Shown here: positions 2,167-60,569 of the stretch, one piece after another
Numbering within the stretch: the stretch's first letter is position 1
Layout: each line of letters opens with the position of its first letter
Source: Eledone cirrhosa
Lineage: Eukaryota
Reading direction: 5' to 3'
Assembly (NCBI GenBank): GCA_964016885.1
Contig: OZ024740.1
Coordinates: 273,048,001 to 273,112,000 of the forward strand
Length of the DNA: 64,000 nt
Translations under genes and position numbers: made by a program
The notes under the pieces: model-generated
Databases searched by the model: none
The model's input: the letters and a program-made list of their open reading frames with translations, nothing else
What the model was told of the DNA's origin: nothing

Positions 2167-2214
2167 AATATACAATATATTAATAAATGGAAACTATATT
2201 TATAAAACCATATT

Positions 2215-2280
2215 TATTTTATTATACATATTTCAAGGGCAACCAAGGCAAATTATGGTGCGCTTTCATCAGATAAAATA
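2215..2280 (-). ncRNA. Type I hammerhead ribozyme (Penelope pLTR type)
   Basis: Minus strand reads tattttat-CTGATGA-aagcgcacca..tggttgccctt-GAAA-tatgtat-A-ataaaata: 8-bp stem I, imperfect stem II, minimal stem III, AUA cleavage triplet. Confidence 0.75.
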
Positions 2281-2318
2281 CAGATCTGTTTTATAAATAA
2301 ATATTGACATACCCGGAA

Positions 2319-2377
2319 AAAAGACAACCTTAACGGTTGGAGCTTCCAGGAAGCTCCAACCGTTAAGGTTGTCTTTT
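2319..2377. repeat. Perfect inverted repeat with 29-bp arms at the 5' end of the hammerhead-bearing remnant
   Basis: aaaagacaaccttaacggttggagcttcc-a-ggaagctccaaccgttaaggttgtctttt, abutting (TA)n. Confidence 0.95.
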
Positions 2378-6210: not shown

Positions 6211-6284
<74 letters not shown>

Positions 6285-6488
6285 AGTGTAAGTTTCTACA
6301 CAAAACGAAGGGTATAGAGAAAATTGAGGTTGGTAATGGCACATGGAATATATAAGAGACAGAATATTTTTTTGTGAAAAAACATATAATTTTATTCTTT
6401 CCTTACCTTATAAAATTATATGTTTTTCCACAAAATAATATTCTGTCTCTTATATATTCCATGTGCCATTACCAACCTCAATTTTCTC

Positions 6489-6566
<78 letters not shown>

Positions 6567-7175
6567 TTCGGATTATGAGAGTCACAGTTGTTAAATGAAG
6601 AGAAACAGCCTGTCAATGTAATCAACATGTATGTGGTTGGGCATTCCACAGATGTGTGGGCTCTTCATGTAATTCTCATGGAGATACAATACGACAACAA
6701 GCAGGAAAAGCTAGACCTTTGAATAATAGGTACGGTCCATTCGACGGGATTCCAATTAGTTAGCATCGACCCAATTGTATTCAAAATGTATGGACTGACC
6801 AAAGGTTACGGGAAATGATGGTTACCCAAGATGCAAAACAGTGGCATCAAATTTGTGACCTAATTATTGCACAGCAACTTCTTAACCATTCTGTTATGTT
6901 AGTACATCCACTGACACACTAATTTAATCCTTTTCAGATAGACGCGTTCAATCACCTTATTGTAAAACAAGATCATCTCACACAAAACGCCAGCATCAGG
7001 AGAATGACAACGGATGCCGATGCCAATAGACCAGGCTGTTTCCAGAAATTTATTTTCGTTTTTACCATTGCACAATCTCCCCTACATTTCTATTTGTTCG
7101 TTAATTTCTCATTCTATTTGCTGATGAAGGACTAGTGTCCGAAGAGCCTTTTCCTACTATATCAATAATAAGAAA

Positions 7176-10892: not shown

Positions 10893-12618
10893 ATGTATAG
10901 CATCTTCACCAATATTCAAAGGAAGAAAAGGGAAGTTAAACTCACAGCTTCCCCCTGCCACTGGCACAGCAGCAGATGCCAAAGGCAGAGGGCAGCCAGA
11001 GGACGAACTTTCTCCACCTGCTGACCGACAACTTGATATAGCCACAACTATACAAGAAACTGAAAACAACAACAAAAACAACAACAACAGCAACAATAAA
11101 GACAACAAAAACAACAACAACACCAACAACAATGATAACAACAACACCACCAACAACAACAGCGACACGAACAAGGAAAAGGTCTCCTTCGCCCAGACTG
11201 CAAGGAAAACCCTCGACTATTTGCCAGTAGATATAAGCAAAACTAAGGTGCTACTGGCAGATGTCAAAAAATACATAGTGTACGGTGAAAATGGATCATT
11301 TTCGATCCACTCGCCCCCGGAATAAACAGCCAGAGACTCCTAAACACTGTCATGTTTAGGACAGTCTCAAACAAAACAAACAAACCAGCTCAACCATCAC
11401 AGCGTGAGGTAGAGCTGGTTTTAAAAGATGTAATGAAAGACATCATATTCATTCAGAAGGATAGACTCTACGGGAGTCTATCCATTCTCATGAAGGACAG
11501 GGACACGGCAGCGAAACTGTCTATAAAACCAATCACATCCACCGCATACACCTTCTACCCTACGTACATGGGTAGAAGGACACAACAAATAAAAATTCAC
11601 ACCATCCTTCCGATTATAGTCATATGGTGGGTATTAACAGGTTTCCTGGACCTAGACGACGACACATTAATATCAATGGGTGACGCGTCCAGTGGAACGG
11701 GCCTCGAACTTGTAGTTCAAATGGGGCCCAAAAGGATCGCCCAGATCCGTGAACGCGTCATACTGGATGATCAAACTTTTATTAACATTACCGTTGAGGG
11801 TAGGCGGCCCTCGTGTTATCTCTGTGGAGCCAGAGGTCTCCTGGGGGCTGTCTGTCTTCAACTTAAAAAGAAAACCCCAATCCTGCCTACACCACCAACA
11901 ACTGCACAACCAACACAATCCCCACAACCACCACTACAAAAACAACCACAGCTCAAACCAATACAAAACAACCCCCCTCCCCCACTAAAAAACAACAACT
12001 CCCAAAACACCCGCAGCGTATACACAACCCGAAAATCTACCCCTCCTCTCCAACACGGAAGATGTCCCTCGTTTGTCGTCAGACGAGAGGAGCACTTTCA
12101 CACAATCAAAAGAAAAAGAAGAAAACACACCCCAGACACACAAATGAAAACAACCCCTCCCCAAAACATGACACAGACACCAACACAAAAGAGCACATAA
12201 CAACAGCAAACAAAAAGCACCACACAAAAACAAAAACATGCATACACATACATAAATACAAGAAATAAAAAAACTGCTAAACATTGTATACAACAACAAT
12301 TTAGTGAAAACCCAAGGGCCTAACTTCACCCAGGCAGGTTATTTCCCCCACCTCAAAATGATTAAGGTCCCAGAGGACACATATAAAAAGCTAAAAAACA
12401 ACTTTAAAGAGGACGTGCCCCCATGCGTCGGGCCCATTAACCGCGTCCTCCTAAAATTTTGCCCCACCCCCTCCCCAAACACACAATCAACTCCAAACAC
12501 CCCAACCACACAACGCACTGATGCCCCTACACTTCCACAAACCACCACCCCACCCAACAACCCATCCTCCACCCTCATGGAAATTGTGCAGCCCGATACC
12601 CGGGACGCAGAGAGGTAA
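10893..12618 (+). pseudogene. LINE ORF1 (gag-like), disrupted
   Basis: Asn-rich N-terminus, SFAQT motif, VEGRRPSCYLCGARGLLGAVC degenerate knuckle, C-terminal YKKLKNNFKEDV. Confidence 0.8.
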
Positions 12619-12638
12619 GTGCCTTTTCTCTTCACCAC

Positions 12639-15600
12639 ATGGCTATGCTGAGAGTAGGTTGTCTAAATGTGCGTGGCCTGGGCTCAACTTGGAAGCAAGC
12701 AATGCTTCTAAATGACCTCAGGTCACAACGTATAGATGTGATGGTTATTTGCAAGGCACGGATCAGCAACGTGCGACAGCTGGCGCCCACCTTTGATGAC
12801 TTTGAGATGCACGCATCTGTCTGTCAGCCCGGAGGTGGGGGTGGGGTTGTCGTTCTGCTGCAAAAGAATTGGGTCTCGCAACACAGACGGTACATTTGGA
12901 CCCGAAGGGTCGACTAGTGGCTCTGGACCTTGGCAGTGGTGAAGGCGGAGCGTTTAGGCTGGTAGCCGTCTACGGCACTTTCGGGTCAACGCGGCCGGAC
13001 TTCTTCCATCGTCTGGAGACCTTTCTAGGGACGTCCCGCTCCTTGCTATTAGTGGGGGACTGGAATAGTATCCTAGATGCACGTTGGGACTACATAGTGG
13101 CGTGTCCCGATAGAGAGGGGTGCAACAGCCTCAAAGGGTTAATCGGCCGATTTGACCTGGCCGATAGATATCGACTAGATTTTCCGACTGCGCCAACCTG
13201 GACTTGGGCAAACCGCAGCGGTTCATCTAGATCGTACCTAGATAGGTTCTTAGTTAGAAATAAGGATAAGGAATTTTTAAGTTGTCCAAAAATGCTCATG
13301 GTTGGCTATTCAGACCATAAGTTAGTGACCTGCATGGTCAACCTTGACAGAACGCATAGACAGGGACCCGGTTACTGGAATTTCAACTTGTCCTTACCGG
13401 CAAGTAAAGCTTACAGGGACGGGATTAACACTTTAGTTAAGGAGCGGTTGACGGGCGCCATCGTCAACAGCACGTGGTGGGGATCTCTCAAAAGAGAGAT
13501 TAGAGTAGTCTCTATAGAATTTAGTAAGGAGTTAGCCTCAAATAGAAATAGGAAGGAAAGGGAGTTGGTAGATAGTGTAGAAGAGGCACTTAGAAGCAGC
13601 GGCGTGGCCATTGTGCTAGCGTCGAGAACGGCCCTGGGCCAGTTCTTCGACGCGAAACACGAAGGCTGCATCGTCCGAAGCAAAATACGTGCTCTGGGAA
13701 ACGAGTGGACCAAAGCTGTTAGCTGGGCCCGCGTGACAGAAGCCAAAAGAGGGAGTAGATCCACTATCCGGTCTTTGCGAGACCAGGATGGACGGGTGAT
13801 CCTTGAACCTAAGCAGATGTGCAAGGCTTTTCAAAAGCACTTTGCCAGATTGTTCGGAAGGAGCGAGGAGCCGGTTGGGGAAGTGGACTTCGGTCCATAC
13901 CTCGACGGCCTGCCGCGTCTCTTTGACAAGGAGGCGAAGTCCTGCGAGGAGCCGATTTCATGCGCTGAGATAGGATAGAGGATGTGCTGAGCCAATGCGG
14001 CAAACGCAAATCCCTGGGTCTCGATAGTCTTCCATGCGAACTATATCTAGCTATACCGGACTTGTTCCCCGATCTCCTCGAGGCGGTCTACTGCAACTGG
14101 CAACAGAACGGGAGAAGTCCCTGTGCTGTGACCAAGGGAGTAGTCACGCTAGTGAGGAAGGACGAGAACAAGGGGGACGATATAAATAATTTCAGGCCCA
14201 TAACTCTGCAAAATACAGAGTTACAGATTTTGGCCAAGGTGCTAGCAAAGAGGTTGGCGCCTGTTGTGGGCAACCTGGTGGGAGATGCACAGACATGTGC
14301 TATCCCGTCCAGGTCCATCCACGACAACCTCCACCTCATGCGACACATCATTGAGAGGGTTGGGAACGAACCCGGCTTTGGTGGGGCCCTGATCAACTTG
14401 GATCAATCTAAGGCGTTCGATAGGGTCGACCATGGTTACCTGGATGCGGTGCTAGCGGCGGCAGGCTTCGGACCCGTTTTCAGGGGCTGGATCATTGCCA
14501 TGCACAGCAGCCGCATCTGCTCTAGAGTCAAGGTGAACGGCTACCTCTCGGAGCCGTTCGAAATCGCGCGGTCCATCCGACAAGGGTGCCCTCTCTCCTC
14601 CCTTCTGTATGTGATGGCTCTAGAGCCACTGCTGCGGAAGTTGGAGTTGTTGCAGGGCATCCCGATGAAACCGGATTGCAGAAAGCGGTGTCGGCCTACG
14701 CCGATGACGTAACAGTAATGGTGTCGACGGCCTCGGAAATCGGAGCGATCGGGACCTTACTGGAGGAGTACGAAAGGTTTACAGGGGCTAAGCTGAACCG
14801 GGACAAGTCGATCGGTTTGCAACTCAGCACGTGGAGGGGCAAATCGATGCCCTCCGATGGCGTCGTCGGGCGCTGGACGTAGAGCCCGGTGAAGCTGCTC
14901 GGGGACTGGTTCGGACCAGACCTCCAGGTGGAGAAGAACTGGGGTGAGGTAACGAACAGGGTGTTTGCACTGACCCAGAAGTGGACCGAGTGCAAACTGT
15001 GCCTGAAAGGTCGGGTGGAGGTGGCGAACACTTATATAGCGTCCGTCATCTACTACCGCCTGGACGCCGTGCCTTGCCCAAGGGAAACGCTCGCCAAAAT
15101 GGAGCGCGCACTCTTCCAATTCAGTTGGAAGATCGGGCTCCTATGATGAGGAGATCCATCTGCTGTCAACACCCTTCGAAAGGAGGGCTGGGGATGCCGT
15201 GGCTGATGATGCGTAAAAACGCATTAACGCTACGGCACCTCCAGGTATTCCTCAGAGGTCAACCGGTGTGGGCCCCGTTTGTGAGGCGAGCCTGTCCCAG
15301 ACTCGTCTCGCTCACCGAGCTGCAATCCTGAGTCAAGCAAAGACCGAGAAAACTGGGCGCCTGGCACACAGAGTGTGCCCAGGCGCTCACGGCTCTCTGG
15401 CATGCGGACCCGGCTGTCAGTGGAGAATCCACCTCGTCATTCTATAGAGGGCTGGTGGTTAGCAGGTGCGACGACGCCCTCGGAGAATCCCTAGGCATGG
15501 AGGAAAACGAACTGGCCAACCTGTTCGGTAGGACATTCAGCCCGGGACCCATGGATAACTTCCAGAGGTCCCTGGCCTGGCAGTGCTACCGAGGGGCTCT

Positions 15601-16077
15601 GCCCGTTCGAGAAAGGCTCTCCAGACACGGGCGCCCGGGTAGGGACCCCTCAAAAAAGATCTGTCCCAGATGCGTGTGCGACGAGCAAACCGTTGCACAC
15701 GCGTTGGTACACTGCTCGGGTATTGACGATCTGTGGGGCTATGTGGAACGACTGCTGTCACGGGTGGGACCGATCCGGTTGACCACCGTTTCTATTGTAA
15801 CGATCAAGCCGCCTCCCCTCTTCAAAAACGAAGGAGAGGCGGTGTTTCTGTGCGTAATAGCCATGGCGAAAGAGGTTGTATGTGGAAGCGTCTGAAAGGA
15901 CTGAGGTTAGACACCTTTCTCTCTGGCCAACAACTGGTCCATTTCTTCCGATATCATTTCGGAAGAAGTATCAGGATGGAGAGAGAGGTGCTCCACCCCA
16001 GCCGTTTTTATGTAAGATGGGTGAAAGTGGCGAGAATGGCCCGTGTGAATGGGCCTTCACTCTACATCAGACTGTAG
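12639..16077 (+). pseudogene. LINE ORF2 (APE endonuclease, RT, CCHC), several stops and frameshifts
   Basis: LNVRGL, GDWN, SYLDR, SDH; FRPITL, LDQSKAFDRV, RQGCPLS, AYADD; CPRC..H..C. Confidence 0.95.
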
Positions 16078-16435
16078 GTGAGTAAGATGAAAGATCCATG
16101 GTGCACCCTCTCTCTGTGCCCATGAGTAGAAGGGTTGCACACTTTTTCGGGTGTGTGTGCGACCCCCCAAGGCGCCTCCTCTCTATTGAGGATGTTGTTA
16201 TTCAATTTATTTTCGTTATATTTTATATTTTATATTTTTATATTTTGTTATTGCCTCCTCCTTATTGAGGACACCTTTTTATGTAAACTCCCCCCATTGT
16301 ACTTATCCCACTCTTTGATGCCCTGGTGGCAAATAATAAGAAAGTTATCTATCTATTTATGTATCTACCTTTCATTAAATCTATCCATCTCTTTTTCTCT
16401 CATATATATCCTTAAGTTTATATATATACTTGATA

Positions 16436-17659: not shown

Positions 17660-20610
17660 TAATAATAATTGTTTCATTTATTTGCCACAAGGACTGGCAT
17701 ATAGGGGACAATACAAAGTCAGGGACAGTGGGGTTTTACATATAACAATGAATAAACAATATGAATACAATAAAAATATAACAAATGACATTCCCCAATA
17801 GGGATGATAACCACTCATAGGTAACACAAGTACCCCATCAATCCTTAACCACTGCTTCGAGAGAACCCAGGAAGGGTACTTCTTCTCAAATCAACCAGCC
17901 TACAGGTGCATGCTCGCTACATTCACCCACCCTATAGCAAATGTACTGGGTGGTATTATTTCTATCGCCTTTCGAAGTGAATATTTATTGTGGGTTTGGC
18001 CCAAGGAAAAAATGTGTGTCTTCAGTCTTTTCAACCTGTTCCAACACACAATGTATTTCGCTACCGTCACCAGACAGAAGAAAAATGCTTGCCCTTCCCG
18101 ACCGAAAGAAGGCGGCTTGGCTATCTACACTATGGACTCGAGGCATTTCTGGAAGTTATCCATCGTCCCAGGTTCGAAAGCCCTCCGGTACAAACTAGTC
18201 AGTTCCACGACGCCTAGAACCATTCTGGGTGCGTCGTCGCACTTGCCTACCACTAATCCTCTATAGAACTCGAGAGGGGAATTTCTATCCATTGATCACA
18301 TTGCCCGCCCGATAGAGGGCAGTGAGCACTTGGCAACATGCTAGGCACCCAGTCTCGGTCTCTTCTTGAACCAAGACTGCAGCTTAGTGAAAGAGACGAG
18401 CAGTGGTATGTCCTGTTTCACAAACGGCGACCACATCTGTTCATCATTTAGACAGAATATCTGGAGATGCCGCAGCATCAGTGCAAGTTTGCACATCAAA
18501 AGCCACGTCATGCCCAGCCCTCCGCGTAGGCGGTGCAGGCAGCAGATGGATAACCTCACTAACAGAACCTGTCTCCTCCGCAAGAAGTTAAATAGGAGCC
18601 GTTCCAATTTGGCGAAGTATGAACGGGGCATGTTACGATGTTCAGGCGGTATCAGATGACGAACCCGAAGTACGCGTTCGTCACCGCCGCCCGTAATTTT
18701 AGGGACAGCTTTCTCTCGGCCCATTTCTTGGTGAGAGTGGCTAACCTGATCGTAACCTTGGCCCAATTCTTATCCAACCGGAGATTCGGTCTGAACCAAT
18801 CCCTGAAAAATTTCACCGGTCCGTCCGTCCAGCGCCTGACGATGCTGGTGGACAGCGTGGACTTGCCTCTCTAGATGCTGAGCTGCAAGCCCACAGACTT
18901 TTCCGGGTTAAGTTTTTCTCTCATCAGCCTTCATATTTCTCAAAGAAGTTGCCGATCATCTCGATTTCCGAGGTGTTCGAGACAATCACAGTGATGTGGT
19001 CCGCCTATGTCGACACAGTCTTTCCGCGACCCGGTTCGAGCGGGGTGTCCTGCAACAACTGCAGCTTCAGCAGGAAAGGGTCGCAAGTCAATACATACAG
19101 AAGGGAGGGGAAAGGGCTCACTTGACGGACCGATCGGTAGATCGAAAATGGTTCCGAAAGATGGCCGTTAACTTTGACCACTAAGCGACATTCGTACCAA
19201 TAGTAAATATTATGGCACGCTAAATGTGCTCGTTTCAAATAACACCCCCTCCTTTTCTATTTCTTGCCTTCATGCTATCATGGCCATCAAATCCTTGTTG
19301 GCCTTTCTTACTAGCACGTTGTTGTGTTTCTTGTTTTGTTCTTGTGTTTGTTGTGCTGGTTGGTGTTTGGGGGATTGTGGTCGTGATGGTTGTGCTGGTG
19401 TTGTTGAGGGTGTGTCTGTGTTTGTGGCGATTGTGGTGTCTTTATTTCATTCGAATCTGTGTGTGGTATACTTGCGGTTTTCTTTTAATAGTGTTTGTCC
19501 TTTTGTTTTCTGGCATTCTTTGGTTGTCCTTTGTCTTCTCTACTTAAAGGTGAGGAGACTGTGTTGTTTTTTGATGCCCGAGTAATTGTGTTTGTCTCTG
19601 TGTTTATGTTTGTGTCTGCTTCTGCAGAGAAAGTTAGAAAGCATTCCTCATTTTCCCCCTGTGTTGGTTTTTCTACTGGTTTTTGTGTGTGTAGGGGTGG
19701 GGGAGGGAGGGGGGGGGGGGGTGTTGGTGGATTTTCCGTCCCATCACTGGCGTTTGCAGCCATGATGGCTTGCAGACCCCTGCATTTTTGAGCTGAGCGC
19801 AGATGGCAAGCAGATGTGTTGCTTCACCGCAGACGAAACAGTGTGGCTTTCACTCTCAGTGACCAAATGTATGGTGGATCCGTCCTGAAGGCACACATAA
19901 TCCGGCATGGTTTGGAATTCTTCTGGTTTTATTTAGACAAGACTCTCCAGATCCATCCCAGATCAGTCCTCTCTAGATATTTTCATAACGTCTGTGAGGA
20001 TACCATCGGAACCAATCACGCACCACAGGAGCCAATATAGTTTCAGCTTTAGCGGGATCCCGGTAATGTCGACCTTTACAGTTTTCCTAACCATGTGGGA
20101 TAGGTACATTACTATGCCGTCCTTTCTATAGGGACCACCGAATCTTCTATAGCAAGGGCCTCGGTTTTGAACCTCACCGAGATGGTGCCGAACAGTTTGG
20201 CCATTGCTTTGTATTCTATGTAATGCTTGGTGTATTTAAGTGCAGCTTCCACTTCTGCCTGGGTGGCGAATTTGCTTTTCAGTTCTGCACTGAAATACCT
20301 CTATAATGCAAACACCTACTTTGCGTTGCAGCTATTGCTTCATCCGCGATGGTTAGGTTGGCCCAGGTTCTTTCTCGCTTAATCAGTTTCCACTTCTGAA
20401 CCAACTCTTTATCCTTATCCGTAATATCCACTTGGAAAACTTTTCTGGTTTTTGTAGCCACAGCTGCGAATGTATTATTGCTGTTCACGTTGTTGTTGTT
20501 GCTGCTTTTCTACTTGCTATTGTTGTTGGTGTTGTTGTCGCTATTGCAGTTGGTGTTGGTATTGTTCTCGGTGTGGTTGTTGTTGGTTTCGTTGTTGCAG
20601 TTGGAATGAA
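17660..20610 (-). mobile_element. Tx1/L1-group LINE copy 2, internally deleted and decayed
   Basis: 3' end ccttgtggcaaataaatgaaaca-(ATT)n; RT 3' half at 17900-19185; ORF1 remnants (TFAAVA, WANLT, CFVCGEATHLLAIC) at 19185-20610; same subfamily as the 40-46 kb copy. Confidence 0.9.
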
Positions 20611-22767: not shown

Positions 22768-23524
22768 AGTATATATATATATATATGTATATATATGTAT
22801 AAATGAGTGTGTGTATATGTGTGTTTGTGTGATTCGTCTGTGTAATATATATGGGCTAACACAAGCTTATATAATTGAGCACAAATTGTATCTACAAATT
22901 CACACACACACAAACTTGCACACTCACACACACACACATATATATATTTGTATGCGTATATGTAGTCTTATATATAAATATATATATATATATATGAATA
23001 TATGCTTGTTCGTATGGCTGCATGCATATATATATATATGTATACCCCTCTGCCAGTCACTCACTCAGTTAGCCTCTTTCTCACACTTTCACTCACTCAC
23101 TCTCTGCTAGTCCCTCTCCACCACTTCCTCCCGTTTGACCTGTCCGGAATCCTTTCCTCGCTCACATTTCAACCAGGTTGGAGAGTCTTTATTCTCTCGT
23201 CTACGATTTCACAGAACTTATGTTCATCGATTTCAGCGACTTGAACCCTACTTCCTCACTTTCCGTTGCATTACCATCTTTGTTTGTTTACTGTCCCGCT
23301 CGTTCCTCCTATTTACGTGTCCCGACGTCTTTCTTTAGCCGTTGCTTGCACAAACCAGAGGTATATGATCTTTAAAGCGATGAAATAACAATGAAGGTTG
23401 GGAGATCACTGATGAAGGACTAATTTTATTCATATATATATCTTTACTCTTTTACCTCTTCCAGCCATCCGGCTGAGGCCATGCTGGGGCACCGCCTACA
23501 TTTATACACACACACACACACACA

Positions 23525-23659
<135 letters not shown>

Positions 23660-23675
23660 ACATATATATATATAT

Positions 23676-23871
23676 GAAAAAGTATGACACCGACGGCAGA
23701 GCTCAAGCCGTTTCGACGGCTATTTCTGGAACATAAAGAAATAGCCGTCGGAACGGTATGAGCTCTGCCGTTGGCGTCATACTTTTTCCTATTTCCCACT
23801 CTACTACCCTAAGTATTGAGTACTCTGGTGCGTTATGGTCCATGCGGTTCCTTACCACAATTCCTTTGTTA
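23676..23871 (+). mobile_element. Penelope-like mini-element with 5' fold-back palindrome (23676-23788)
   Basis: Imperfect ~50-bp inverted arms, then the shared body; flanked by (TA)n on both sides. Confidence 0.7.
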
Positions 23872-23885
23872 TATATATATATATA

Positions 23886-23988
23886 TAGGAACGAGTAGGA
23901 CCACATTTCTATTACCCACTCTACTACCCTAAGTATTGACTACTTTGGTGCGTTATGGTCCACCTGGTTCCTTACCACATTTCCTTCG

Positions 23989-23991
<3 letters not shown>
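23886..23991 (+). mobile_element. Same mini-element family, palindrome mostly deleted
   Basis: taggaacgagtagga remnant joined to ctattacccactctactaccctaagtattg body. Confidence 0.7.
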
Positions 23992-24027
<36 letters not shown>

Positions 24028-24030
24028 TAT

Positions 24031-24242
24031 AACAAAGGAATTGTGGTAAGGAACCAGATGGACCATAACGCACCAAAGTACTCAATACTTAGGGAGTAGA
24101 GTGGGTAATAGGAACGAGTAGGACTCCGACGGCTGAGCTCAAGCCGTCTCGACGGCTAATTCTGGACTAAATGAAAGTTTTCATTTAGTCCAGAATTAGC
24201 CGTTGAAACGACTTGAGCTCAGCCGTCGGGGTCCTACTCGTT

Positions 24243-24247
<5 letters not shown>
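24031..24247 (-). mobile_element. Same mini-element family with ~140-bp palindrome (24108-24247)
   Basis: Near-perfect ~69-bp arms centred at ~24178; each arm carries a hammerhead 3' half GAAACGGC..GCCGTC with one substitution. Confidence 0.75.
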
Positions 24248-24305
<58 letters not shown>

Positions 24306-24346
24306 AAGAACACAAGAGCGTCTACAACATCAACAGATTTTTATTG

Positions 24347-24391
24347 GCTTACAATGTTTCTTCCTTACGTAACCGTAGGATTCGTCAGAGC
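24347..24391 (-). ncRNA. Type I hammerhead ribozyme in a Penelope pLTR remnant (~24302-24505)
   Basis: gct-CTGACGA-atcctacggttacgtaaggaa-GAAAC-att-GTA-agc, then AATAAA; the base of stem II is an A.A mismatch. Confidence 0.7.
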
Positions 24392-25155
24392 TATAAAAGG
24401 GGTTTGATTGGTGTTATGGACTCCAAAGCATAGAGCTAATTATTATGCTGCCAATACCTTAATGGGACACGGGTATACAATACCTAACTCCTATTAACCT
24501 AAGTATATATATCTATATATATATTTGTATATATATATATATATACATACATATATTATCGTGCGACGGATGTATAGATACAGGATAGTCATATCCAATA
24601 CATTTGAAAAAGGAAACAAAAACCTAGTGGTAATTATTAGTATTCTACAAGGAAATGCGGTGATCATTTCTTGAAGTTAAACATATATTTCATAGAATTC
24701 CTTTTTGTAGGGTGTGTCTCAATTCCCTGCTGGCATTGGCCAATCTATGTGCATGATGCAGTCGTACTTATCACCATAATATAGCCAGCAGAGGTCTTCT
24801 TTGATCATTTAAAGATTTTCCACCTAGAAAAAGCGTTATGTCTGTCTGTATGTATGTATATATTCTTCTGGTTTTATAATTTCACAAATTTTTACCAATA
24901 GAGAGAGAGTCGGTTTCTAGCATAGATACAAGACTCTCTCATTCGAATTTACACAACATCAACTAGATAGATATATATGCATGTCTGCATGCATGCATGT
25001 GTAGATATGGAGGTTATTGTATGTCTGGTTGTGTATGTTTTGAGTTGTACGTGTGCATGTGTATATGCTTTGTATCTGTACATGTGTATATGCAGTTATT
25101 AGATGCAAAATTCTTGGAATGTTTTAGATATTTTTACTGTTCCATTAATGGATTG

Positions 25156-29396: not shown

Positions 29397-29467
<71 letters not shown>

Positions 29468-29513
29468 AATGAATAATAACAGGTAGACATCATAAAAGGT
29501 AATTTATTCCGTG

Positions 29514-29625
29514 TGCTTACAAGTGTTTCCACGGTGGTACTACAGCCTAGTTATGCTATGTGCAAATTTACAAGTATTTGCAGAACTCAAATATCCAATG
29601 CTGTGACCACTGTATCCTCAGAGCA
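29514..29625 (-). ncRNA. Type I hammerhead ribozyme with ~85-nt extended stem II
   Basis: tgct-CTGAGGA-tacagtggt...accaccgtg-GAAAC-actt-GTA-agca. Confidence 0.8.
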
Positions 29626-30115
29626 GAATGGTAAAATGTACTATGTAAATACCCTTAAGTGGGGTTGTTGGGGAAGATAGAGTAGAAAAGGAAGAGAGAA
29701 AAGTAGGGGAGAGGGAGAGAGAGAGAAAGATATGCAGGGGTTGGAGAAGTAGGAGAGAGTGGTTTGTAGATATCTTAATCAAAATGTTATGGTAGGGGTT
29801 TTATTATACTGGTTACTTTTGGAGAGATGCGTTGATAGTTAAGGTCGGAATTATTTATTGCCCCAGAGGGCAGGTTCATAGATGTGGAGAGGGAGGTAGG
29901 CCAAAGGCGAGAGAGAGAGTGTGTAATGGATGTAGAGAGAGAGGTAGAGAGGGGACAGACGAAGTTTATGTGGTGAGTGAACTTTGGGTTTGTAGTAGTA
30001 ATCTGTGAATTGCACTGAGTTACCATTTATAGTGGTAAGCAGTGTATTGTCTTGTAGTGTGGGGGAAGAGAAGGTGGTTAGCTAGAAAGCGATGTTATAG
30101 TTACGGGTTCGAATG

Positions 30116-32270
30116 TTAAGTTATTTTATAGTGAGAGAATTTAGCTTTTAGTTTGTGGTTGCAGTATAATGATCGTTCAATTCTATCGTTACGTAGTTTG
30201 TTTTTGGATTTTAATATGTAAAAGAGTTCAAGGTTACATAACCTGCAGCACTTCAATCCACTCCGATATGCACTTGCGCTTGAAAGTATATCCCATTTTA
30301 AGGTGAACTGTTGGTTGCGTTCGCGGAGTTGCCAGGTTTTGTTGGCGAGCGTGGTCACAAAACGGTGATTAGGATGTTTGATTGAGAATCGATGACGGTA
30401 CCAGCGAGATTTAAACGAGGTGGTGGTAGATCCGATATAATACCATAATCTGGTCGTTCGATTCAACCGTGCATTGGTAAACAATGTTGGACTTTAGGCA
30501 TTCATTCTTCAATGGACATCTTTCAGGTAGATGGCAGTTACATTCTTTGTTGTGGGTAGCGGGTATACCATGGATAGGTTGTGATAGCGGTACAGGTGGA
30601 TTGTGCAATACCCGTCTCCCATTTAGTGGTTGGGAGGCAGATATTACGTTCTGTCCATCTGTTACTAAAATGTTTTGTTTTGTAGAGTTGTTTAATTTCC
30701 TTAAGTTAATTTTTTTTTATGTATGCTTCAAGGTTTGGTGCCGTGGAGTATGATAGTCTAATAGTTTAAGAGTTCAGAATTTTGCAATATTTATGGGAAC
30801 TAGGGAAATGTTTGTTGATTAACTTAAAGAATGAAAGAGATAGTTTTGTACTAATCGAGGCATTAAAAATAGGATTGTACCAGCTATACTTTCTACAACG
30901 AGATTTATTTGGTGGTGATTTTCTATTATTAGTATGTCTGGTAGTACTGTGTGTGTGCGCTTGTATTTTAGTCCACCGGTTACGTATTCCTTGATTTCGT
31001 GTAGAGCTATGTGTGTTATGGAAATTCCTATCAATGTATTCTATTGTATCCCGGTGGTTGGCCTTTCTTAATGCATTATTGTAGTATTCAGCGTGTTCAC
31101 TAAAAATATCAGAGTTAGACGATAGGCGAGAGATTCTAAGAGAAATACTCCGGGGAACTGATTTGATCATGGAGAGTGGGTGGTTTGAGTTAAAGTTAAT
31201 ATACGTAAGGTTCTCATTCATCTTGTGGAAGGGTCGTATCTGTCCGGTATTTAAATTAAGAGTTACGTCCAGAAAGTTTACTACTTTAAGATTGTATTCG
31301 TATGTTATTTTTAGACCCAGTTCACTAAAAGATTTTCTAATATTTTTCCGTCGCCTTTCAAGATTTTGGTTATTCAAGTTATTAACTAATAAGAGCCCGT
31401 CATCTCGGTATATCCCCCCCTGTAGATTACTAAATTTACTATGTAATATGTGGGCTATGTAAATTCCCACGAGATCCGTGACCTCCGCTGAGTCGTTGGA
31501 ACCCATGGTAATGTCGAAATGTGTGGGTCTGTCCTTACGTTCCCAGTAGCAGTTATCAAACTTAATAATGGTTTTTCTAGCCTCGAGAATAATATTAATT
31601 TCGTCCTCTGTTAGATCGGAATTGACCTTAGCAAACGATAGGGACTTACGTAAAGTGCTTGGTGAGATGGAAGAGTAGTATTCGTCCATGTCAAATTGTA
31701 TAAACTTAGATTTATTCTTATTCTTAACGTTATTAAACCAGCGAATTGCTTCCCTTGTGTTGCTCCATAATTTAATTTCAATTCTCTTTTTCACTTGAGT
31801 TATTACTCTGTCAAGTATATGTTTGCTAATTTTTCCTATGTCTGATTTAGAAGGGCATATAAGTCTAATCTTAGGGTTAGAGTCAAAATTTACTTTATGG
31901 TCCTTCAGGTTGAAGGTGGGGGTAGCGGGTATAATCGGTTCGGTTCTATCGTCTATCTTGAGATTCTTCACCACTTTATATGCCTCGTTGTTAATATTTG
32001 CCAGCGTAGTTTCATTTGTTTTTCTATATTTTTTGTGTAGTTCGTTGCGTATGAAGTTATTGTACGTATAGATATCCATGGTATACACGTTAGAGGTCTT
32101 GTCAGCTTTCACAACAATTCCATTGGTATTTTGCAATCTTCGGAGTAGTGCTTTCATGTTGCTCTGCAGCTCATTATTTCTATGTTTGTTGAACTTAATG
32201 TTCATGGTCGTTTTCATTAAATCTTGTTCGAAAGCATCGAGATGAGGGTTTGTGGGTGGGTTTTTACATG
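30116..32270 (-). pseudogene. Penelope-like RT-GIY-YIG polyprotein with one nonsense codon and at least two frameshifts near the C-terminus
   Basis: KADKT, LKDHK..KIRLICP, QFDMDEYYSSI, TMGS, IYRDDG, NFLDVTL; CNCHLPERCPLKNECLKSNIVYQC..YYIGST..FKSRW..H; CRLC; CNH. Confidence 0.92.
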
Positions 32271-32616
32271 ATTTTCACATAATTTCACATAAATATATAT
32301 GGAGAGAGAGGGAGAGGGAGAAATAGAGAAAACCAGAGAAAGAGAGAGTAGAGAGACAGAATGAGAAAGAGTGAGGTGGATGGAGAATGAGTGAGAGAGA
32401 GGCCCCAAAAATCTTCTTTTTCACTCCCAAGTTTACTAATGGTGCTGTGAGACACTAAACAATCTCTACTTTTGCAATCCAGACTGCATCATTCACATAC
32501 AAAATTTAGAACACTGTTTTCTTTCGACCTTGCCATATATTATATAAGTTCTTAGTTCTTATGTTGATATGGCTTCTGATGCCACTTTGAAATGTCTTCC
32601 TTTCGTCCCTTTACTG

Positions 32617-60322: not shown

Positions 60323-60445
60323 ACAAAGAGGGTGTGGTCATGTACCAGGTGGACCATAGCGCACTAAAGTACTCAATACTTAGGGTAGTAAAGTGGGTAA
60401 TAGGGAAAAGTCCGGACTCCGACGGCTGAGCTCCGCCCGTTTCGA
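60322..60445 (-). mobile_element. Penelope-like mini-element of the 23.7-24.2 kb family, abutting a plus-strand SINE tail (~60460-60490)
   Basis: aagtactcaatacttagggtagta..ggactccgacggctgagctc..gtttcgac. Confidence 0.75.
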
Positions 60446-60569
60446 CATGGGTAATTTCTCGCCTTGTGCCAAAAGTAGAAACAATTATTTTATTTTGGTT
60501 TGCTTGAACATGGTTACCTAAGATCCTTGCGACATCATCAGGCTCGGATTGCACACACACACACATAAG

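Follow-up and report, generated by a model that had tools for sequence, protein, structure and literature searches.

Palindrome-plus-tail repeats in (TA)n-rich DNA of Eledone cirrhosa as likely 5′-truncated ends of a Penelope-like element

Introduction

Among the closest described systems are the Penelope-like elements (PLEs). Craig 2021 (PMC8557442) described PLE insertions with an inverted 5′-truncated copy and a tail of 30–40 nt at one end, and listed (TA)n as a target of the octopus Naiad and Hydra families. Palindromes at the inverted junctions were read by Arkhipova 2013 (PMC3846280) as products of self-priming, and siRNAs matching the inverted regions of Penelope were reported by Evgen'ev 2013 (PMC3681739). 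For R2 elements, junctions formed by snap-back of the cDNA have been described (PMC11371274, PMC11331408). In the experiments of Frangieh 2024 (PMC11167929), both strands of an AT-rich target were cut and extended by a PLE protein, and reverse transcription began at two sites, which bound the tail. The origin of the tandem and inverted ends of PLEs is nonetheless an acknowledged open question (PMC8557442, PMC11167929). Concerning ribozymes, the minimal hammerheads of PLEs were defined by Cervera and de la Pena 2014 (PMC4209133), and those of animal PLEs usually have a helix II of 4–8 bp and a minimal helix III (PMC4209133, PMC8557442). Recently active Penelope families have been reported in Octopus vulgaris (PMC13282606), in a paper whose accessible part mentions neither palindromes nor ribozymes. 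A literature search, thin on subscription papers, found no work in which the inversion points of PLEs are put at stem II of the hammerhead.

The DNA analyzed here, called the window, is a stretch of 64,000 nucleotides of Eledone cirrhosa. It is rich in TA and CA microsatellites, with many SINEs and LINEs of the APE-RT-zinc-finger kind. A degraded cluster of the latter (L1/Tx1-like, 68–88% alike) occupies 12600–16100, 18100–19200 and 35400–55600. A sequence-only reading of the window had proposed that two palindromes in (TA)n arose by fold-back of a Penelope cDNA at the stem II of a hammerhead.

Results

Anatomy of the palindromes and their relatives

The two palindromes, at 23676–23788 and 24108–24247, were confirmed, as was their location in (TA)n. 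The units to which they belong exceed the size described earlier, since each palindrome is continued, on one side only, by a tail of about 81 nt that ends in (TA)n. The first unit (c1, plus strand, 23676–23869) consists of an outer, inverted arm, a 9-nt loop running in the orientation of the outer arm, and a tail-side arm (palindrome 23676–23788), followed by an 81-nt tail (23789–23869) that stops at (TA)n. Both of its arms contain a GAAAC..GUC motif resembling half a hammerhead. The second unit (c3, minus strand, 24032–24247) comprises the one-sided tail (24032–24110) and a near-perfect palindrome (about 24111–24247) with its axis at 24177/24178; at its outer end, a TAT is common to the element and the (TA)n flank. 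Folded with their tails, c1 and c3 gave z values of −13.6 and −19.2, respectively, and none of 200 shuffles was equally stable.

Three more copies, also missed by the sequence-only reading, were detected by BLAST and profile search, giving a family (family A) of five copies, all from this one 64-kb window. Copy c2 (plus strand, 23888–23989) sits between c1 and c3 and is an inversion without duplication: a 15-nt inverted stub (23888–23902) is joined almost directly to the tail (23909–23989). Copies c1 and c2 are in tandem over the tail only. Between c2 and c3 there is a (TA)n run (23990–24031) with the tails on both sides facing each other; across this (TA)21 the facing tails make up a further inverted repeat of about 200 nt (23906–24114). 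Copy c4 (minus strand, 60323–60446) has a single arm from GTCGAAAC, the tail and (TA)n, with no inverted copy. A 45-nt 3′ end of the SINE abundant in the window (plus strand, 60445–60489) is inserted 5′ of its GAAAC, with a 6-nt word repeated on either side of the insert. Copy c5 (plus strand, 1988–2135) is a distant relative, about 58–60% alike in the tail, with a palindrome (1988–2052) centred on the stem III position and a homologous outer boundary. None of 1000 shuffles or 1955 random windows reached its score with any of three references, and its E value was 0.01 with a profile from which it had been left out.

Considering all the copies, the one-sided tail is present in five of five and the inverted copy in four. 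The 3′ end is at the same base in (TA)n in c1–c4, while c5 stops at (CA)n. Tails diverge by 5–10% within c1–c3 and by 14–19% between these and c4. At its outer end the inverted arm has a fixed boundary in c1, c2 and c3, with a homologous one in c5, and it is the axis that varies. Outer ends fall at TAT or TATA in the element in c2, c3, c5 and the unrelated family at 6282–6484 described below, with one mismatch in c1, but not in the family at 2170–2376, these words covering 2–15% of the positions in the sequences concerned. In this count the family A copies are not independent, because their shared outer boundary may have been inherited from one master.

None of the five copies is attached to an ORF, as expected from their 5′ truncation, and the tail is not crossed by any convincing start of an ORF. 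The family A copies are inactive. A protein search with the 44-codon open frame of c1 returned no longer, mis-annotated copies. A scan of GTDB with a 16-mer of the tail gave 51 matches with a best extension of 29 nt, which is the level of chance, and a scan for bacterial promoters and terminators gave nothing above shuffles. In the supplement of Craig 2021, nine short motifs of family A had no hits in the PLE consensus files consulted, one word being nearly shared, and the octopus Naiad 3′ ends given there did not match family A by eye.

Comparison of the arms

The four arms of c1 and c3 were aligned over 62 ungapped columns, of which 43 were identical. The remainder were five columns grouping by copy, one by side, eleven singletons and two of other kinds. 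The single by-side column belongs to flank outside the arm, so that none lies within the arms. The claim that variants go with the copy is thus borne out, with the qualification that the c3 variant recurs in c2 and is therefore a subfamily variant, not a copy-specific one. On the other hand, the conclusion drawn from it earlier, that each palindrome was copied from itself, does not follow. Two cDNAs made from one RNA, a subfamily master, or conversion from arm to arm would all give grouping by copy, which shows only that both arms have a common source.

Arm against arm, mismatches amount to 5 of 52 pairs in c1 and 4–5 of 67 in c3 (four plus the tip), and nearly all are of the transition type, which fits the ageing of once identical arms. 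These differences bear on the possibility that the palindromes are an assembly artefact, produced by chimeric reads that had folded back in TA-rich DNA. Microsatellites make palindromes difficult to assemble, and the window includes a 200-N gap; read fold-back, however, would not leave aged arms, nor would it make the boundaries recur across copies. An artefact appears extremely improbable.

Another possibility is that a non-autonomous, PLE-derived palindrome with its tail is copied as a unit, c2, c4 and c5 being deletion or truncation products and the arms being kept alike by conversion. It would agree with the architecture and central sequence common to c1 and c3, and with the similarity of their tails (4 differences in 80, against the five by-copy differences in the arms). 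Moreover, stem III is self-complementary, so that deletion between the stem III copies of the two arms would give c5. Against it, c1 and c3 differ at the axis itself, c2 carries the same variants as c3 in a wholly different architecture, and other families show the same layout independently. Movement of the mini-elements of the sequence-only reading as palindromic units is not supported here, and we consider a palindromic master quite unlikely.

Relation of the motif to hammerhead ribozymes

The sequence-only reading took the arms to carry the 3′ half of a hammerhead (GAAA, stem III and the cleavage site). This holds for the consensus of the arms, which has GAAA, stem III and UH, whereas an exact 23-nt match is found in none of the four arms, which have 1, 1, 1 and 5 substitutions. 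Stem III is intact in the outer arm of c1 and nearly so in c4; no compensatory changes were seen among c1, c3 and c4. The half-motif lies in sense orientation about 97 nt (96–98) from the (TA)n end. It is also weak evidence if taken alone, as the two strands of the window (128 kb) contain 11 instances of GAAAC followed by a stem of at least 5 bp and UH. In c1 and c3, weak pairing of 3–4 bp between the 5′ flank and the strand following GUC can be traced by eye.

The other half, CUGANGA, had been reported as missing from both palindromes, and indeed none occurs within 8–38 nt of GAAAC in c1 or c3, nor within 150 nt upstream of the half at 23714. The core is also lacking in c2 and c5. Copy c4, on the contrary, has CTGATGA at 60541–60535 on the minus strand (within 60530–60550), 91 nt upstream of GAAAC across the SINE fragment, so that the complete lack of this core in the family, which would have told against a hammerhead, was not observed. 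A core within 150 nt is found at 3.8% of random sites, and a core together with the duplication at 5 of 20000, for a pattern defined post hoc; the CTGATGA-T-G of c4 is only about 9 nt from a (TG)n run. Its stem I is unpaired (one anchored pair, with 1133 of 2000 shuffles as good) and its 91-nt spacer is unfolded (480 of 500 shuffles as stable). An apparent covariation of a small hairpin across the GAAAC of c4 was dropped, the sequence being derived from the SINE.

A relaxed hammerhead descriptor recovered three loci in the window (28364, 24388 and 2272) and none in family A. The whole window had no Rfam match at gathering score. By E value, the region 23400–24700 gave 116 matches and the window 113; none was a ribozyme, and most were miRNA hairpins of a generic kind that fell short of the gathering score. 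Rfam is uninformative here, since it also misses two complete hammerheads, at 24388 and 29621. A Twister ribozyme and type II, type III or permuted hammerheads were also considered and rejected, as the tail has no CUGANGA downstream and Rfam no match. In the Naiad_Obim and Naiad_Ovul 3′ ends of the Craig supplement (PMC8557442), as far as inspected by eye, GAAAC lies upstream and CTGATGA downstream in the 'half core', which is accompanied by segments with the potential to pair as a permuted or dimeric hammerhead. In family A, GAAAC..GUC is probably the 3′ half of a pLTR hammerhead, separated from its core; to read it as a hammerhead is plausible, if unproven.

If the half-hammerhead were fortuitous, family A could be a DNA element, either a MITE or a Helentron-associated (HINE/DINE-like) element with an internal inverted repeat and (TA)n as target. 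The chance-like frequency of the half-motif and the lack of an Rfam ribozyme match would be compatible with this, and terminal inverted repeats differing at the subfamily level would also group by copy. However, the inverted repeats of family A are not terminal, the 81-nt tail being outside them on one side, and the 3′ end is kept in c4, which has no inverted copy, and in c2, which nearly lacks it. Arms grouping by side across copies, as MITE terminal repeats would, were not seen. Together with the insensitivity of Rfam, which misses the hammerheads at 24388 and 29621, this makes a DNA element highly unlikely.

Penelope-like ends elsewhere in the window

About 5 kb from the palindromes there is a Hydra-type PLE (minus strand, 29463–32274) with RT, a GIY-YIG-like segment, a hammerhead and a (TA)n end, broken by a stop and frameshifts. 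Its ORF at about 30766–32274 (minus strand) is a PLE-type RT with DKT and YRDD motifs. It had 160 homologues at E≤0.001, the best 42% identical over the whole length, and no Pfam match in a search of 35 window ORFs. By eye, the RT is colinear with Hydra-1_Obim as given in Craig's supplement (PMC8557442). A CxC..CP linker and the GIY-YIG-like segment come after it in other frames, and the match of the latter (E 0.0066) is below the curated cut-off. The hammerhead, at about 29510–29626, is of type I and has every part of the core. Its stem I is of 4 bp, its stem III of 3 bp and its stem II domain of 85 nt, which is unusually long and folds into an extended hairpin (−22.8 kcal/mol, with 6 of 500 shuffles equally stable). 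Published Hydra elements have instead stems of 3–7 bp and short loops.

Beside c3 there is another PLE-like end (minus strand, 24302–24500) with a compact type I hammerhead (about 24340–24400, core at 24388), whose stem II is 21 nt long and from which the (TA)n is 48 nt away. With c1–c3, it makes four insertions stacked in one TA tract. Neither the Hydra-type PLE nor the other PLE ends show sequence similarity to family A, and the two complete hammerhead ends have 48–55 nt from cleavage site to end versus 96–98 nt in family A. A 14-nt word starting with CTGATGA occurs twice on the plus strand (7121–7150 and 23409–23422); after the copy at 7121 come a short hairpin and then a decayed GAAA, which may represent a hammerhead family in decay.

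Two further units, both located in TA repeats, show the palindrome-plus-tail layout. That at 6282–6484, in (TA)n/(TC)n and unrelated to family A, has arms of about 75 bp, a 14-nt loop and a 36-nt one-sided tail, with no CUGANGA or hammerhead core on either strand. That at 2170–2376 (minus strand; the 2320 family) has a perfect 28-bp palindrome with a 1-nt loop at the 5′ end of the fragment, and a hammerhead (2272, minus strand) with an 8-bp stem I and intact core about 50 nt 3′ of the palindrome. Its axis lies well 5′ of the intact core; the palindrome is a candidate for a genuine fold-back junction at a distance from ribozyme stems.

Taken together, the one-sided tail, the fixed 3′ end in (TA)n and the inverted 5′-truncated copy support well the Penelope-like origin proposed for family A by the sequence-only reading, in a window that holds the Hydra-type PLE and two further hammerhead-bearing ends. 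Most likely, the palindromes are ordinary debris of a PLE family that is undescribed as far as the sources consulted go, as supplements of further PLE or octopus repeat papers may hold the parent consensus. Against PLE debris run the lack of an RT ORF joined to any of the five copies, the lack of similarity to the other PLE ends of the window and of motif hits in Craig's consensus files, and the lengths of the tail (81 nt, against the published 30–40 nt) and of the stretch from cleavage site to end (96–98 nt, against 48–55 nt).

Fold-back at stem II or two priming events

The mechanism proposed earlier supposes a parent with a complete hammerhead and a long stem II (at least 27 bp), at which the stalled cDNA would prime on itself and give palindromes centred on stem II. 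The axes of c1 and c3 do lie 13–27 nt 5′ of GAAAC, within a central sequence common to both. The hairpin seen there, however, is merely the centre of the palindrome, for the 27 nt 5′ of GAAAC are unfolded in a lone arm (0.0, 0.0 and −0.1 kcal/mol in the three arms tried), and it may be a product of the inversion itself. Further points for fold-back are c4, which stops at GTC/GAAAC and has CTGATGA-T-G upstream and a 6-nt duplication around its insert, the full hammerhead with the 85-nt stem II of the Hydra-type PLE at 29621, and the precedents of self-priming proposed for PLEs and cDNA snap-back observed for R2. In contrast, the axis is at the stem II position in only two of the four inverted copies (not in c2 or c5) and in neither of the other two palindrome-plus-tail families. 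In addition, stem I of c4 pairs no better than shuffles, its spacer is unfolded, the descriptor misses family A, and animal PLE hammerheads normally have a helix II of 4–8 bp and a tiny helix III. Snap-back alone also offers no reason for the second arm to end at that same boundary of the tail.

Snap-back needs the outer arm to be copied from the tail arm, yet in two of the four inverted copies (c1 and c2) the outer arm has sequence absent from the tail arm. Snap-back alone is then insufficient, as c1 and c2 would require later deletions, and two priming events fit better: no further step is needed for either copy if its two arms are cDNAs that were truncated separately. Two unrelated families, at 6282–6484 and 2170–2376, have this layout with no stem II at the axis, which points in the same direction. 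It is likely, then, that family A represents 5′-truncated 3′ ends of a PLE whose outer arm came from a second priming event and not from ribozyme fold-back; we put the probability of this reading at about 0.55. The near-perfect axis of c3 counts against it, being what fold-back would give, and it may be that c1, c2 and c5 started out as palindromes like c3 and had some of the tip deleted afterwards.

With two priming events, the sequence of steps would be as follows. The GIY-YIG nuclease of the element would cut both strands of (TA)n. One of the cut ends would prime at the RNA's 3′ end and give the tail arm, while the other would prime about 81 nt inside, at a UAU able to pair with the target, and give the outer arm. 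Both cDNAs would stop early, mostly 0–30 nt 5′ of GAAAC, and be joined head to head, so that variants of the source RNA would appear in both arms. Point mutation, and possibly deletions at the tip, would come afterwards, the first accounting for the transition-type arm mismatches.

So, snap-back at stem II is neither needed nor general, and we regard it as unlikely. The 85-nt stem II at 29621 keeps it alive as a possibility for family A, and stops at up to 30 nt from GAAAC in three of the five copies (c1, c3, c4; nearly so in c5) hint at a block there. One may picture that some PLE families of this genome have a greatly lengthened stem II, as at 29510–29626, that the RT of family A stalls there and the cDNA folds back, and that nicking or stopping at the boundary of the tail then sets the palindrome free, in which case the fold of the ribozyme would set the sites of inversion; this we hold to be doubtful.

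Discussion

The interest of family A is that its very short copies show the geometry cleanly: a fixed 3′ end, an equally fixed inner boundary at TA microhomology, and a variable axis. The structure, the self-priming hypothesis and siRNAs from inverted repeats are already published, and so family A should be taken as a test case, not as a new system. The 85-nt stem II of the Hydra-type hammerhead widens the known range of PLE ribozyme shapes slightly.

Two priming events recall the twin priming of L1, reportedly put forward by Ostertag and Kazazian in 2001, in which the second target strand is said to prime internally. Copy c2 resembles L1 inversions in being an inversion without duplication; L1 inversions, unlike c1 and c3, are not known normally to duplicate one stretch into a palindrome. 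No paper applying twin priming to PLEs was found. The snap-back of R2 and the PLE self-priming model of 2013 are alike in that the 3′ end of the cDNA primes on itself and gives an antisense 5′ junction; in neither is the fold-back point tied, in the parts consulted, to hammerhead stem II, and the 2013 PLE model (PMC3846280) differs also in invoking an antisense RNA template.

Non-LTR retrozymes (PMC7229834; bioRxiv 10.64898/2026.07.22.740005) are likewise PLE-related repeats that are short and non-coding, and they bear hammerheads of type I. They form head-to-tail tandems of units that each bear a complete hammerhead, whereas family A is head-to-head and coreless. The inverted repeats at both termini that define MITEs are not found in family A either.

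The Poseidon PAc element studied in vitro (PMC11167929) offers a comparable mechanism, with two RT starts that delimit the tail, both strands cut and extended, and an AT-rich target. It differs in that its hammerhead and tail overlap the ORF start, and family A is known from sequence alone. Family A can also be compared with EN+ PLEs as a group (Penelope/Poseidon, Neptune, Nematis, Naiad and Hydra; PMC8557442, PMC3846280). It departs from them in its tail of 81 nt instead of 30–40, its incomplete hammerhead, its helix III of 5–6 bp, atypical for animal PLEs, and its lack of an ORF, the PLE ORF with RT and a GIY-YIG-like segment in the window being of another family. As in these elements, an inverted 5′-truncated copy adjoins the direct copy (four of the five copies), a tail is present at one end (all five), a palindrome occupies the inverted junction, and a fixed 3′ end and variable 5′ end are found in a microsatellite target, which for octopus Naiad and Hydra is also (TA)n.
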